Below, piece by piece: positions 1,781-26,775 of a DNA stretch of 32,000 nt (positions within the stretch are counted from its first letter, which is position 1; each line of letters starts with the position of its first letter). The notes beneath the pieces were generated by a model. It was not told the DNA's origin and did not search any database. It saw only the letters and a list, made by a program, of their open reading frames with translations. The stretch spans positions 1-32,000 of the forward strand of contig OY969425.1 in the NCBI GenBank assembly GCA_963699255.1, read 5' to 3'. Source of the stretch: an uncultured bacterium. GTDB lineage: Bacteria > Margulisbacteria > WOR-1 > CAVSGV01. A program made the translations under genes and the position numbers.

Positions 1781-1811
1781 AAAAGCCTGGTAAAAATTAC
1801 CAGGCTTTTTT
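1781..1811. terminator. Bidirectional intrinsic terminator (rrs side and the 1833-2276 gene side)
   Basis: A4, then stem AGCCTGGTA (1784-1792), loop AAAAT, TACCAGGCT (1798-1806), then a T run to 1811. The A-tract/T-tract symmetry allows termination from either strand. It lies 22 nt beyond the stop of the minus-strand gene. Confidence 0.65.
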
Positions 1812-1832: not shown

Positions 1833-2276
1833 TTAAATCTTTCCGGGCAACTGACCGTACCAGTTCTGCTGATCGTCCCGCGAAACAGTCGCCGTAAATT
1901 CAAGCGGCTCACGCTTAACTGCCTTCTTAACGGCATCAGTATAAAGAGAGCCCCAAATTCCTCCTTTAAACCACCTAATGTATTGATTAGTAAGGAAGTG
2001 GCTAAAGAGACTCTTCACATTTCCATACCATACCTTCTGATCGAGTTGCGGAACTTTTGCAGTAAGATCAACAATGCCGCAATTAAACATGTTGAGTACT
2101 CCAGTAAACCACCTATTGTGTTGCAGATATAGACCCTTCTTAATGGATACTCCATACCAAGCTTGCTGATCTCTTATGCTTTGTCGAGCTCCCGCTTTAA
2201 AATTCCCCTTAAATCCACCGCGGGACCAGCGCCTATGTTGATTGCCTAACGAATTAATTCCTTCTGATCCTTCCAT
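1833..2276 (-). CDS. Hypothetical 147-aa Trp-rich repeat protein: three QxxRW...WYG units, the last homologous to cytosolic segments of the GT2-like protein at 24371-25840
   Basis: The track ORF 1833-2342 opens at a TTG inside the promoter motif. The ATG at 2276 has the SD GGGGGTG 6 nt upstream, in the same GTGAATAAAATGG context as the neighbouring gene. Repeats: QHRRWSRGG..DQQAWYG, QHNRWFTG..DQKVWYG, QYIRWFKGG..DAVKKAVKREPLEFTAT..DQQNWYG. No signal peptide or TM segment. Confidence 0.7.
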   Translation of the reverse strand: MEGSEGINSLGNQHRRWSRGGFKGNFKAGARQSIRDQQAWYGVSIKKGLYLQHNRWFTGVLNMFNCGIVDLTAKVPQLDQKVWYGNVKSLFSHFLTNQYIRWFKGGIWGSLYTDAVKKAVKREPLEFTATVSRDDQQNWYGQLPGKI

Positions 2277-2318
2277 TTTATTCACCCCCTTGAAGAGGTC
2301 CACAGAAACAACTCTTAT

Positions 2319-2361
2319 CTCCCCTCTGTATATATATCGCAAAAATCGGCTTTATATTTCA
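2319..2361 (-). promoter_or_regulatory. Promoter-like motif copy (TGAAAT-N17-GATATA + TATACAGAGGGGAG)
   Basis: On the minus strand: TGAAAT (2361-2356), exactly 17 nt, GATATA (2338-2333), then the conserved ATATACAGAGGGGAG. There are 56 nt from GATATA to the ATG at 2276. Confidence 0.6.
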
Positions 2362-2460: not shown

Positions 2461-3321
2461 TTAGTACTTCACCGTAACCTCAAGGTTTATCGGCGCGAGC
2501 CTTTTGAGGCCGACATAATACGGATTCGTATTTGGATCGTAAGGCTTGGTCGGATCATAAGGGTCGACTAATACCCTGTTGAGATCGTCTGCATGATACC
2601 CTGTCCATCTGACGCGATTATTGTATACCGTCACTATCCCTTCGTCAGGATCGAAGAGCAGTTTTTGAGCGCTTCCGACGCTATATCGTTTCATAGCGTT
2701 CAGGTCAACTATTGTCGAAGTATCGATCCCGTATTCGACCACCGCGCACACTTCCATGTTCCCGTTGCCTGTTTCGCTGTTCAGCAGCGCCTCGGGCAAA
2801 GTAAATTCCCGCTGTCCGCCGGCGAGATCAAAAATTCCCGCCGACAGCTCCGGCGCCGTAACGGGGTGGTCGCCTTTAAGCTCTACCCACCGTCCGCTTG
2901 TATCAAGGCCGTAGATCTTGCCATGGGACTTGTCAATAAGCTTGACGCTTTTTATATAAAGCTTTACCGGAGCCTGCCCGCCGTCCTTCCACGGGGTCAG
3001 GGCGGCATCGCCGGTCGCGCCGTTTATAAGGCTTCTTACCTGATAATCGACTTTATTGGCCTTTATGATGATCTTCGGCCTATAGCTGGGATCAGTATTG
3101 GGTGAGACCTTGTCAGACACGTCGATCTTCACTATTTTTGAAGTTCGGAACGTGCTGCCGTCATCTCTCACCAAAGGCCCTTCCCACTGGACATTCGTGG
3201 TATATTGCGGCCCTGAGACAGGCTTGGACGAACCTTTTTCACCCTTTTTGCCCTTAAAAAGGATCGAATCGATCAATGAGACCACAGGATTCTTGACAGC
3301 CGTTGTATCTGTTCCGCCCAT
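2461..3321 (-). CDS. Hypothetical protein (286 aa), no recognisable domain
   Basis: Long ORF. The track start at 3330 is GTG, but the ATG at 3321 has AAGGAG 8 nt upstream. It has its own promoter-motif copy and terminator. No signal peptide seen. Pro/Asp/Tyr-rich C-terminus (DPYDPTKPYDPNTNPYY) ending in VKY. Confidence 0.75.
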   Translation of the reverse strand: MGGTDTTAVKNPVVSLIDSILFKGKKGEKGSSKPVSGPQYTTNVQWEGPLVRDDGSTFRTSKIVKIDVSDKVSPNTDPSYRPKIIIKANKVDYQVRSLINGATGDAALTPWKDGGQAPVKLYIKSVKLIDKSHGKIYGLDTSGRWVELKGDHPVTAPELSAGIFDLAGGQREFTLPEALLNSETGNGNMEVCAVVEYGIDTSTIVDLNAMKRYSVGSAQKLLFDPDEGIVTVYNNRVRWTGYHADDLNRVLVDPYDPTKPYDPNTNPYYVGLKRLAPINLEVTVKY

Positions 3322-3363
3322 TTTATTCACTCCTTGGAAGGGTATTGAAATTAATGTCCCTTA

Positions 3364-3406
3364 CTCCCCTCTGTATATATATCGTCAGAAACCGCTTAAA
3401 ATTTCA
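3364..3406 (-). promoter_or_regulatory. Promoter-like motif copy (TGAAAT-N17-GATATA + TATACAGAGGGGAG)
   Basis: On the minus strand: TGAAAT (3406-3401), 17 nt, GATATA (3383-3378), then ATATACAGAGGGGAG. There are 56 nt to the ATG at 3321. The palindromic TATATATA could also serve the divergent + strand gene (TTAATG-N17-TATATA). Confidence 0.6.
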
Positions 3407-24383: not shown

Positions 24384-25840
24384 AAAAAATCGAGAATAAA
24401 TCGGTCAGGCTCGACTGCCGCAGGGTGGAGCTGGACTATTCGCGCCGTAAGCAGTCCGGAAAAATAATAAAGGATTATAACCCATCGAGCAGCAATTATT
24501 ATGAATTGAAGCTGGGACCGGGAAGGGTGTTCACCGAAAGATTCAGATGTAAAGAGGATAATATTTCCACGATAATAGCGAACCTGAAACTCCAGAGGGA
24601 AATGGTGGGTGTTCCTGATATCGGCGACGGCAGGGGAGGAACGAAGATCATTTCGGTTAAGACTCGCATTGCCGAAATGGTCGCCCAGTACCATTCATTT
24701 AAAGATGACAAGGAATACGTTGAAACTGTATTGACCGCCCCTATCTTTCAGCCGCCAAGCTGGATCACAGAGGACATGATGACCACATATTTCCATTACC
24801 TTACCGGCTGGGACACGGAGATCAATCCTGAGGGCGTTGGGTTTGCGGTCGGGCCTTCGGATTTTGTTGATCTGGCCAAGCAGCATCACAGATGGTTCAA
24901 GGGCGGGCCGGAATGTTATCTGGACATGAAAAAATACCTTGACGCGTACCCGGCGTTGAAACATTCAATGCAGGGGTATTCCATGCAACAGGCGTTCTTA
25001 TGGCCGCTACATACCTTAACCGATGAGCTTCTGTATTATGTGCCGGCCGTTTATTGGGCCGGCCAGATACTCAAGATCGGCGGAAAGATCCTGAAGAAGG
25101 GGATAATCCCGTTTTCAACCAACTGGATCTTTATTCCCGTGTTCGGGTGGTATTTCTACTATACCCTTAAGAACTATATAAGGCCGATGGCTTTAATGGG
25201 GGTCAGTTTCCCCGAATTATGGAGAAAAGAAGCGATGCTTTCCATACAGGGACCTGTTTATGAGGACGCCGTTAAAAAGGCGGTCCTGCGAGAGCCGCTT
25301 GAATTCGCGGCGACGGCGGCCGGAGACAGGAAAATGCTCTCGTATGAATTCCTTAAAGGGATAAAATGGAAAAGGAACCTGAGCAAGGTCACAACGCTTG
25401 TCGGAACAGGTATTTCCGCGGGGCTTGTATATCTGAAAGGCGGCGATCTTGAGTGGCAGACTTATGCCGGCTTAGGGTTCAATGTCCTGTTCCCGCTTTT
25501 AAGATGGGGATTGCTCAGCAGCGGGATAAAAGACCAGTATTCTTACCCCACAAGTTATGACACATACCTGAAGGAAAACCTGGAGCTCGAGGGCGCCGGA
25601 TACATAAAAGTATCCGAACATACCCCCGATACAAGGCTTGTAACCTTTAAGGTGAACAGCAAGCAGGACGCGGAAAGGGCGATAAACAGATTATCGGGTA
25701 ATCTGGGAGCGTTCACCCAGGTGAAGAATTATCTTGCGGGCATTCCGGGCACAGCGGGATTTGCCGAAATAGCAAGCCAGATACTGGCGCCTGATAACGC
25801 GGCCGAACCGAACGGACCCAGACCGTGTACCTGGCGGTGA
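24371..25840 (+). CDS. Membrane GT2-family processive-synthase-like protein (489 aa; TED and QxxRW motifs, 4 predicted TM helices)
   Basis: SWITEDMMTTYFHYLTGWDTEINPEGVGFAVGPSDFVDLAKQHHRWFKGG matches the cellulose-synthase-type block (vTED..t.l.l...Gw...y......g.aP.....l.Qr.RWa.G). It is preceded by LKLGPGRVFTERF (compare G.n.vfRR). After QxxRW come two hydrophobic helices, a cytosolic LREPLEFAATAAG segment at the position of the FxVTxK gating loop, two more helices and a ~100-aa soluble tail. GTG start at 24371 with AGGTGATC (24361-24368), perfectly complementary to the 16S 3' end GATCACCT. Confidence 0.7.
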   Translation: MVSVKKIENKSVRLDCRRVELDYSRRKQSGKIIKDYNPSSSNYYELKLGPGRVFTERFRCKEDNISTIIANLKLQREMVGVPDIGDGRGGTKIISVKTRIAEMVAQYHSFKDDKEYVETVLTAPIFQPPSWITEDMMTTYFHYLTGWDTEINPEGVGFAVGPSDFVDLAKQHHRWFKGGPECYLDMKKYLDAYPALKHSMQGYSMQQAFLWPLHTLTDELLYYVPAVYWAGQILKIGGKILKKGIIPFSTNWIFIPVFGWYFYYTLKNYIRPMALMGVSFPELWRKEAMLSIQGPVYEDAVKKAVLREPLEFAATAAGDRKMLSYEFLKGIKWKRNLSKVTTLVGTGISAGLVYLKGGDLEWQTYAGLGFNVLFPLLRWGLLSSGIKDQYSYPTSYDTYLKENLELEGAGYIKVSEHTPDTRLVTFKVNSKQDAERAINRLSGNLGAFTQVKNYLAGIPGTAGFAEIASQILAPDNAAEPNGPRPCTWR

Positions 25841-26775
25841 AGGTAAAAGAAGGCGGAATATACGAGAGCTTCTCAAGGCATTCAAGGATCGACGGTGATT
25901 TCTATTTCAAGCATGACTATAAGATCCAAAAAAATTACCATGACATGGATAAAGACCTTAAGACCGCCGTATCAAAGGGACGACTGGAAGAGGCATTGGA
26001 TAATTACGACAGGATAGTTAAGGAGAAAAGAAGGAACAGCGCTGAGATCCTGGATGATAAAAAATCATATAAAGCAAAGGTGACCGGCGAGGAAACAGGC
26101 CTGCTTAAATCGGCCATCAGCAAGCTTACTGATAATATTAAAAACGAGAACGACCCGGAAAAGACATATGAGGATATCATGCTTCTTTCCAGGGCTTTTG
26201 TAACGACCGGGCGATACGCTGATTCGGCGGCGCTGCTCCTGAAACTGCTTTCCAAGGGGAATAGCACCATCCCGGTAAAAGGGTTTAAGGATAACGAGCT
26301 TGATGCCGCAACAGGCAAAGCAGCTGACGCGGTGAAAGACAGGAGCGAGATAATAAAAAAGATCCGACAGGCTATATTGCGCGATCCGGCTTCCATGAAC
26401 AAGATCGTGCTGTCAATGAAAACGGATGAGATAAAGGAGATATTCGGTTCGACAGGCGCTGTTTTCAACGGGGTAAGCGCTGAAGATATTTCTGATGTAA
26501 CATCAAATATGACCCTGGAACAGGAAGGCGTATTCATGCAGAGCCTGGTCAATGCGGGATGCGGGGAATTAAAGGACGCATTGATCATAGAGTTCTATGG
26601 AGTGAGCGGAAAGTCCTATGATGAACTTATCGCGTTAACAAAGGAGTTTACGAAGAACGAGCGGGCTATAAGGGACATACTGGACAGAGAAGCGAAAAAG
26701 AAAACGGAAAATATAATGATCAGGATAATCGGTCCTGATATCGCGAAACTATTGCTGACAGGGGGCAAGAAATAA
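25825..26775 (+). CDS. Hypothetical helical protein (up to 316 aa)
   Basis: The ORF overlaps the upstream stop and abuts the next ATG (stop 26773-26775, ATG 26776), which suggests operon coupling. Candidate starts are GTG 25825, GTG 25837 (a GTGA overlap with the upstream stop) or ATG 25945. None has a clear SD. Confidence 0.55.
   Translation: MYLAVKVKEGGIYESFSRHSRIDGDFYFKHDYKIQKNYHDMDKDLKTAVSKGRLEEALDNYDRIVKEKRRNSAEILDDKKSYKAKVTGEETGLLKSAISKLTDNIKNENDPEKTYEDIMLLSRAFVTTGRYADSAALLLKLLSKGNSTIPVKGFKDNELDAATGKAADAVKDRSEIIKKIRQAILRDPASMNKIVLSMKTDEIKEIFGSTGAVFNGVSAEDISDVTSNMTLEQEGVFMQSLVNAGCGELKDALIIEFYGVSGKSYDELIALTKEFTKNERAIRDILDREAKKKTENIMIRIIGPDIAKLLLTGGKK

Follow-up and report, generated by a model that had tools for sequence, protein, structure and literature searches.

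A putative non-catalytic mini-protein of synthase descent encoded beside the 16S rRNA gene of an uncultured Margulisbacterium

Processive GT2 synthases, which make polymers such as cellulose, chitin, hyaluronan and PNAG, are controlled by c-di-GMP domains, by phosphorylation and by small membrane partners. Small accessories including BcsR, BcsF, PgaD and IcaD tune the activity or the assembly of synthase-dependent exopolysaccharide systems. To our knowledge, no GT2 synthase is regulated by a soluble paralogous fragment that bears the enzyme's own ligand-contacting motifs. These motifs have been described for BcsA and CesA, where QxxRW supplies a Trp that stacks against the acceptor sugar and an Arg that binds the diphosphate; the gating loop FxVTxK covers the nucleotide, its Phe contacts the QxxRW Arg (Phe503-Arg382), and its Lys is essential in BcsA (PMC9934533). 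The first two sugars are held by Phe301, Tyr302 and Asn298 of an N-x-x-F-Y loop, and Trp383 is also on the first sugars (PMC6821405). Both papers cite structures of BcsA from R. sphaeroides. A second point of comparison is provided by the microProteins of plants and animals, such as miP1a/b and LITTLE ZIPPER, which compete for the contacts of their parent proteins (PMC4807768, PMC7534434, PMC9638782).

The gene studied here lies in a window of 32,000 nucleotides (the whole stretch of DNA that was analysed) and encodes a protein of 147 aa, hereafter the mini-protein. It is like the microProteins in being smaller than 20 kDa, in its apparent derivation from a larger multi-domain protein, in being without catalytic parts and in being separately encoded, and the post-translational modulation of its parent proposed below would extend the likeness. 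However, the known microProteins are eukaryotic and carry a folded protein-protein interaction domain, whereas the mini-protein is bacterial and has a tandem array of three copies of short motifs from the active site and the lid. With the BcsA segment that runs from interface helix 2 (IF2) through TM5/6 and interface helix 3 (IF3) to the gating loop, it shares QxxRW, an aromatic x-Y-G loop and an FxVTxK-like loop that follows an amphipathic helix; unlike that segment, it comes without a GT-A domain, DxD, TED or channel helices, its motifs are triplicated, and the Lys of FxVTxK is absent from its unit 3 as well as from its parent. Like BcsR, BcsF, PgaD and IcaD, it may be a small protein that accompanies a processive GT2 synthase and tunes it. 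Those accessories do not descend from the synthase, most of them are membrane peptides, and their genes lie within the operon, whereas the mini-protein is soluble by prediction, appears to be a paralogous fragment of the synthase and is encoded 20 kb away. The features of the locus and of the putative synthase cluster are collected in Table 1.

Table 1. Coordinates in the window of the mini-protein gene, its units and signals, and the pieces and promoters of the putative parent enzyme
Feature	Position	Strand	Remarks
Hairpin terminator of the mini-protein gene, followed by a U-rich tail	1781-1809	-	13 bp, -17.7 kcal/mol, z -6.1
Mini-protein gene (P0001)	1833-2276	-	147 aa + stop; ATG at 2276
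Unit 3	1854-1985	-	aa 98-141: QYIRWFKGG, IF3/gating-loop-like block, DQQNWYG
Gating-loop-like block of the mini-protein	1878-1958	-	aa 107-133; homologous to P0002 292-318
Unit 2	2022-2123	-	aa 52-85: QHNRW ... (LTAK) ... DQKVWYG; degenerate in P0005
Unit 1	2151-2240	-	aa 13-42: QHRRW ... DQQAWYG
5' leader of the mini-protein gene	2277-2326	-	possible GAGGGG/CCCTTC stem; RBS GGGGGTG
Sigma-28-like promoter of the mini-protein gene	2334-2360	-	[TG]AAA-N17-CGATAT; also kept upstream of P0005 in L008/L013
Sigma-28-like motifs of synthase cluster units	8402, 8476, 17132, 18609, 19395, 21301, 30014	+	
Sigma-28-like promoter of P0003	21301-21327	+	
P0003, first enzyme piece	21333-24383	+	1016 aa; KAG, DKD, IQHPQ, DQQAWYG (23703-23723), FFSCG
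P0002, second enzyme piece, GT2-like	24371-25840	+	ITED (aa 133), QHHRWFKGG (24881-24907), hairpin, gating-loop-like block (25244-25360)
Third enzyme piece	25825-26775	+	316 aa; fused to the P0002 homolog in P0008 (56% identity, E 6e-113)

The mini-protein gene sits beside the 16S rRNA gene (44-1561), where the original prediction had put it. A sigma-28-like promoter, a 5' leader with an RBS and a hairpin terminator belong to it, and a second terminator upstream, which ends the preceding gene, leaves it with terminators on both sides. Among the six frames, that of the gene has the best codon score, yet this score falls in the low tail for real genes (4th percentile). A TTG-started reading of 169 aa is unlikely, as its start falls upstream of the -10 box of the promoter. 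The public record of this gene (P0004, 85 aa; window 1836-2090, minus strand) begins at Met63 and omits the conserved first unit and a half; conservation of the first 62 residues of the mini-protein in the homolog P0005, described below, shows this call to be too short. The product has a pI of 10.0 and contains 4.8% Trp (0.94% in the long ORFs of the genome), 14% aromatic residues and 12% Gly, and its helical moments are high around QxxRW. It has no hydrophobic or transmembrane segment (KD19 maximum 1.05; 1.51 in P0005) and no predicted signal peptide. A Pfam search with it returned no family at E <= 1, no nucleic-acid-binding family and no CBM profile, and the family profiles did not recognise a GT-A catalytic domain in it; a motif check found neither DxD nor TED in P0001 and P0005. 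From these features and from the comparison with P0005 below, the ORF proves to be a real monocistronic gene under selection, with a small, basic, Trp-rich and predicted cytoplasmic product. Without DxD, TED, a GT-A core or transmembrane segments, this product cannot be an enzyme.

The original prediction described the protein as three QxxRW...DQxxWYG units, with repeat significance as its test, and this description was borne out. Pairwise alignments of the units score 47-61, against 19-22 +/- 4 in 1000 shuffles (z 7.1-8.9), and none of the shuffles reaches the observed score. By summed score, the top two non-self matches of the mini-protein in its genome are P0003 (four segments, 89 bits) and P0002 (three segments, 84 bits), while all other ORFs, among the 6237 of at least 80 aa, stay at or below 27 bits. 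A six-frame translation of the 1.77-Mb genome contains the heptapeptide DQxxWYG at just four places, three of them in the mini-protein ORF and one in P0003, the large protein in which the module had been predicted; Q..RW..G is found five times in ORFs of at least 80 aa (three in the mini-protein, one in P0002 and one elsewhere). Unit 3 is identical to P0002 at 22 of 39 positions (pairwise E 2e-9; E 1e-5 against all 6237 ORFs), with RWFKGG unchanged and DAVKKAV.REPLEF.AT matching at 15 of 17 positions. These matches are specific rather than of low complexity, and they support the proposal that the protein was built from the QxxRW, gating-loop-like and DQQxWYG segments of a synthase. A chance or compositional resemblance could be suspected from the shortness of every motif and from the extra blocks KAG and FNCG, neither of which is individually significant, but it is already refuted by the repeat z of 7-9, the genome-wide E of the main block, the uniqueness of the heptapeptide in 1.77 Mb and an hhalign E of 3.7e-10 (see below).

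At the DNA level, the mini-protein gene and P0002 have the 14-mer GAGCCGCTTGAATT in common, as had been noticed before. Their best local match comprises 51 of 66 nt (1888-1953, minus strand, against 25249-25314, plus strand; score 36 against 12.3 +/- 1.4 in codon shuffles); the identity over 1895-1945, originally put at about 85%, was measured at 39/51 (76%). In the main block, identical codons are used at 10 of the 22 identical residues, with 8.1 expected from codon usage (P 0.26), and the DQQAWYG of unit 1, which equals P0003 791-797 at 7/7 residues, agrees with it in 2/7 codons. These counts rule out recent gene conversion or copying between the mini-protein gene and P0002 or P0003. Since the synonymous sites are saturated, the motifs are maintained at the protein level, and the DNA similarity follows the conservation of amino acids. 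Antisense regulation is ruled out as well, the similar strands being both sense strands.

P0003, P0002 and the ORF behind them are pieces of one split protein. In P0010 (1502 aa, contig L012), the counterparts of P0003 and P0002 form a single chain in which all motifs are present. Only three metagenomic relatives were found for the enzyme family; it is absent from the 145 phylum genomes searched, and a pattern scan of 185,579 species genomes for P0002 returned none. Its motifs run in the order KAG, DKD, IQHPQ, DQQAWYG, FxCG, TED, (Q/M)HxRW and PLEFAAT, and E. coli BcsA (b3533) has the same order of eight (KAG, DCD, QTP, FYG, FFCG, TED, QRIRW and FNVTAK); E. coli BcsA, P0002 and P0010 agree in a spacing of 38 from TED to QxxRW. 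PF13632 scores 12.7-13.4 bits against the parent enzyme, with a cut-off of 27 (best member E 0.006). The collinear order of the eight motifs, together with these sub-threshold Pfam matches, suggests that the parent is a BcsA-like synthase. The hhalign comparisons of A3 (the P0002 family) and A4 against E. coli BcsA were not significant, searches of the PDB by sequence and by profile, with P0002, P0003 and A3 as queries, returned no relevant match, and the AlphaFold2 model of P0002 from a three-sequence alignment has a pLDDT of 44, too low for use. In the place of the gating loop the family reads F-A-A-T-A-A-G-D-R-K or P-W-D-A-T-D, with no Lys at the K position of FxVTxK. Support for the original equation with the QxxRW and FxVTxK of BcsA comes from the collinear motif order and the sub-threshold Pfam matches; the parent lacks the essential Lys.

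Several further observations concern the enzyme family. P0009 and P0010 (contigs L010 and L012) have Met in place of the Q of QxxRW (MHRRW), and their gating-loop-like motif is PLPWDAT or PFQWDAT. The putative transmembrane segments of P0002 are weakly hydrophobic, with KD19 maxima of 0.92-1.26 (0.9-1.1 in the hairpin); the best value in P0009 is 1.73, and the range in E. coli BcsA is 1.9-2.9. It is possible that the enzyme does not form a membrane channel of the classical kind. P0003 754-799 resembles P0002 171-179 joined to 309-321, in that QYQKHFKKEGP...YLEPVANSSGSD is similar to QHHRWFKGGPE...PLEFAATAAGD, and SDQQAWYG to SMQQAFLWP; this likeness hints at an internal repeat in the parent enzyme.

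The relationship of the mini-protein to this enzyme extends over nearly its whole length. In hhalign, the mini-protein family (A1) matches the P0002 family over 140 columns with E 3.7e-10 and a probability of 96.7%, aa 3-143 being placed on P0002 161-328; the match to the P0003 family (E 4.6e-4) places aa 96-143 on P0003 754-799. By motif position, P0002 161-328 would correspond to interface helix 2 of BcsA (with QxxRW), the helical hairpin, interface helix 3 and the gating loop. The mini-protein begins at the conserved GPSDF block of the enzyme, which P0005 separates from the Q of QxxRW by the same 10 residues, and ends shortly past the gating-loop-like block. Between these anchors, P0002 has a helical hairpin of 112 residues (180-291), the mini-protein 86 residues with two extra QxxRW...DQxxWYG units, and P0005 a stretch of 60 residues in which unit 2 is degenerate and a hydrophobic remnant survives. 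Of the seven blocks best conserved in the enzyme family, the mini-protein retains three or four, and among the conserved 9-mers it keeps those ranked second (RWFKGG), third (GPSDF), sixth (the gating block) and seventh (SDQQAWYG); the TED and GIGPGRG blocks are not retained. Its EPLEF..S..DQQ.WYG resembles the EPLEPVA..S.SDQQ.WYG of the P0003 family at 12/19 positions, a likeness for which either recombination at the shared PLE or convergence may account. A strictly collinear KAG-WYG-FxCG-QxxRW-gating loop skeleton was considered and dropped, with KAG and FNCG at about 20-23 bits and E > 0.01; the FNCG of the mini-protein aligns equally well to a loop in the hairpin of P0002.

Descent of the mini-protein from the cluster's own cellulose-synthase-like enzyme is well supported by these comparisons, and the simplest history would be a partial duplicate of an enzyme segment, the middle of which was remodelled by internal duplication. 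The collinearity of the whole protein with P0002 161-328 points to a copied IF2-hairpin-IF3-lid segment in which the middle was turned into extra units, and not to three pieces pasted together. The same homology may alternatively be viewed as a unit 3 in which QxxRW was joined to the gating block by deletion of the hairpin, which is how the original prediction had it. From that account the three units, the blocks and the close match of unit 3 to P0002 are retained, whereas the collinearity is a property of the whole protein and not just of unit 3, and the hairpin, said to be a TM hairpin of about 120 aa, is slightly shorter and weakly hydrophobic.

The mini-protein family consists of two members, P0001 and P0005. 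P0005, a metagenomic protein of 124 aa, is the sole homolog among 1.84 billion representative proteins (E 8e-10) and the one find of the metagenome search that had been suggested; it is encoded on contigs of 1.7-1.9 kb, one from a metagenome scan (L008) and one from an exact look-up (L013). No further relatives were found in 145 other genomes of the phylum or in viral contigs, a pattern scan for the mini-protein in 185,579 species genomes returned none, and the weak matches in the 60 nearest relatives, such as L003, are attributable to chance. The two proteins are 38% identical and align from their first residues to the C-terminus, P0001 having three copies of QxxRW and P0005 two, and the invariant columns cluster in the QxxRW, WYG, FNCG and PLEF.AT blocks. 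For the 108 aligned codons, dN is 0.39 and dS 1.21, a ratio of 0.32. In the promoter, leader and RBS, the two organisms agree at about 85% of positions. No synteny was found between the two loci, the neighbourhoods of which differ; upstream of the P0005 gene (L013 193-831) is a gene for a 212-aa lipoprotein-like repeat protein, unrelated to the neighbour gene in the window.

These data bear on whether the mini-protein gene is a functionless relic, that is, a decaying partial duplicate of the synthase gene that is open by chance. The ORF is intact and aligns at full length across two lineages at saturated dS and a dN/dS of 0.32, its conserved residues are concentrated in motifs that are kept despite synonymous turnover, and it has a dedicated promoter, leader, RBS and terminator as conserved expression signals, all of which speaks against a relic even though the family is tiny, the codon score is low, no fold is predicted and the public gene caller retained just 85 aa. 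The dN/dS ratio and the conserved expression signals exclude a decaying fragment as the main reading, and we consider a relic very unlikely; the decay against which the original prediction had cautioned was not seen.

Sigma-28 (FliA/SigD) class-3 promoters have the form TAAA-N15-GCCGATAA. The motif ahead of the mini-protein gene and the cluster genes has the same geometry and the -10 core CGATA[TA]; unlike the class-3 promoters, it would drive non-flagellar, lineage-specific genes here. The pattern [TG]AAA-N17-CGATA[TA] is found at 136 places in the genome, compared with 8-24 in shuffles, and heads about 100 genes. Ten sites are in the window, where they head the mini-protein gene, its neighbour at 2464-3321, a 900-aa gene (two sites), a 477-aa gene, a methyltransferase gene, a PurA-like gene, P0003 and the last gene. 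Two occur in L012, at 4354 and 11380, and one of these heads the single-chain enzyme gene. Because this promoter type is used about 100 times, co-regulation and joint expression of the mini-protein gene and the enzyme are plausible but not specific to the pathway, being part of a putative large regulon. The mini-protein gene and the neighbouring 286-aa gene are the only ones in the genome with a cassette of about 85 nt (2273-2360 and 3318-3405, both minus strand) that combines the sigma-28-like promoter with the GAGGGG...CCCTTC leader, the RBS and GTGAATAAAATGG; this cassette is also kept before P0005 in L008/L013. The neighbour (2464-3321, minus strand) encodes a beta-rich protein of 286 aa without a Pfam family, and has a 50%-identical paralog about 37 kb off (genome 39747-40504, plus strand).

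As to its role, the mini-protein would offer, by motif position, three copies of two aromatic platforms and one lid, with zero catalytic acids. In light of the roles of these motifs in BcsA, we infer that it copies the ligand-contacting lid three times over and is catalytically dead. We propose that it acts on the enzyme's own pathway as a non-catalytic modulator, the two being made together from the same sigma-28-like promoter type. It might dock on the split enzyme and replace the native lid or lie beside it, in a competition like that of the microProteins, or it might hold the polymer end or the nucleotide-sugar. For a synthase-derived non-catalytic modulator of this kind, be it a microProtein-like decoy or a binder of the polymer end or nucleotide-sugar, we regard the case as evenly balanced. 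A more detailed version is possible though doubtful: as a free threefold mimic of the acceptor and nucleotide lid, the mini-protein would bind the polymer end or the cluster's unusual nucleotide-sugar, or plug the half active site of the split enzyme, and thereby start, cap or throttle polymerisation. AlphaFold2 gave no fold for the mini-protein (two-sequence alignment, pLDDT 36), so its motifs may be displayed differently from those of the enzyme. Once removed from a GT-A fold, short motifs do not necessarily bind the same ligands, and glycan binding by the mini-protein is a guess from its aromatic motifs.

The division of the enzyme into pieces raises another option, that the mini-protein is a positive structural subunit, a fourth piece that contributes an extra interface helix and lid for assembly or activity. 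The enzyme is encoded in three ORFs here and is fused elsewhere, the mini-protein gene has the same promoter type, and the source segment lies between the catalytic and the channel parts; yet P0002 retains its own QxxRW and gating-loop-like block, which leaves nothing missing for the mini-protein to supply, the single-chain P0010 also has all motifs, and the mini-protein gene stands 20 kb off as its own unit, in a neighbourhood that differs in the other lineage. We judge a subunit role unlikely.

A function unrelated to the synthase would be that of a basic, aromatic-rich binder of membrane surfaces or nucleic acids, in which the motifs survive as amphipathic helices. That no nucleic-acid-binding family was matched argues against it, as does the nature of the residues kept in both lineages, which are the ligand-contacting ones (Q, R and W of QxxRW; W-Y-G; PLEF.AT), and the identity of DQQAWYG to that of the enzyme despite different codons. 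On the other side are the pI of 10, the aromatic and Gly content, the high helical moments around QxxRW and the position next to the 16S rRNA gene, and the exact expression cassette is common to the unrelated neighbour gene and not to the enzyme genes. We hold such a role to be improbable.

Should the mini-protein not act on the enzyme, its substrate or its product, its gene would still illustrate cleanly how a gene can arise from an internal segment of an enzyme and be kept under selection. If the non-catalytic modulator proposed here does bind one of these, regulation of the microProtein type would exist in bacteria, in the form of an 'active-site microProtein', and the protein would represent a minimal peptide scaffold for acceptor-site motifs. 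It would then also provide a handle on the extremely rare and opaque split synthase system of Margulisbacteria.
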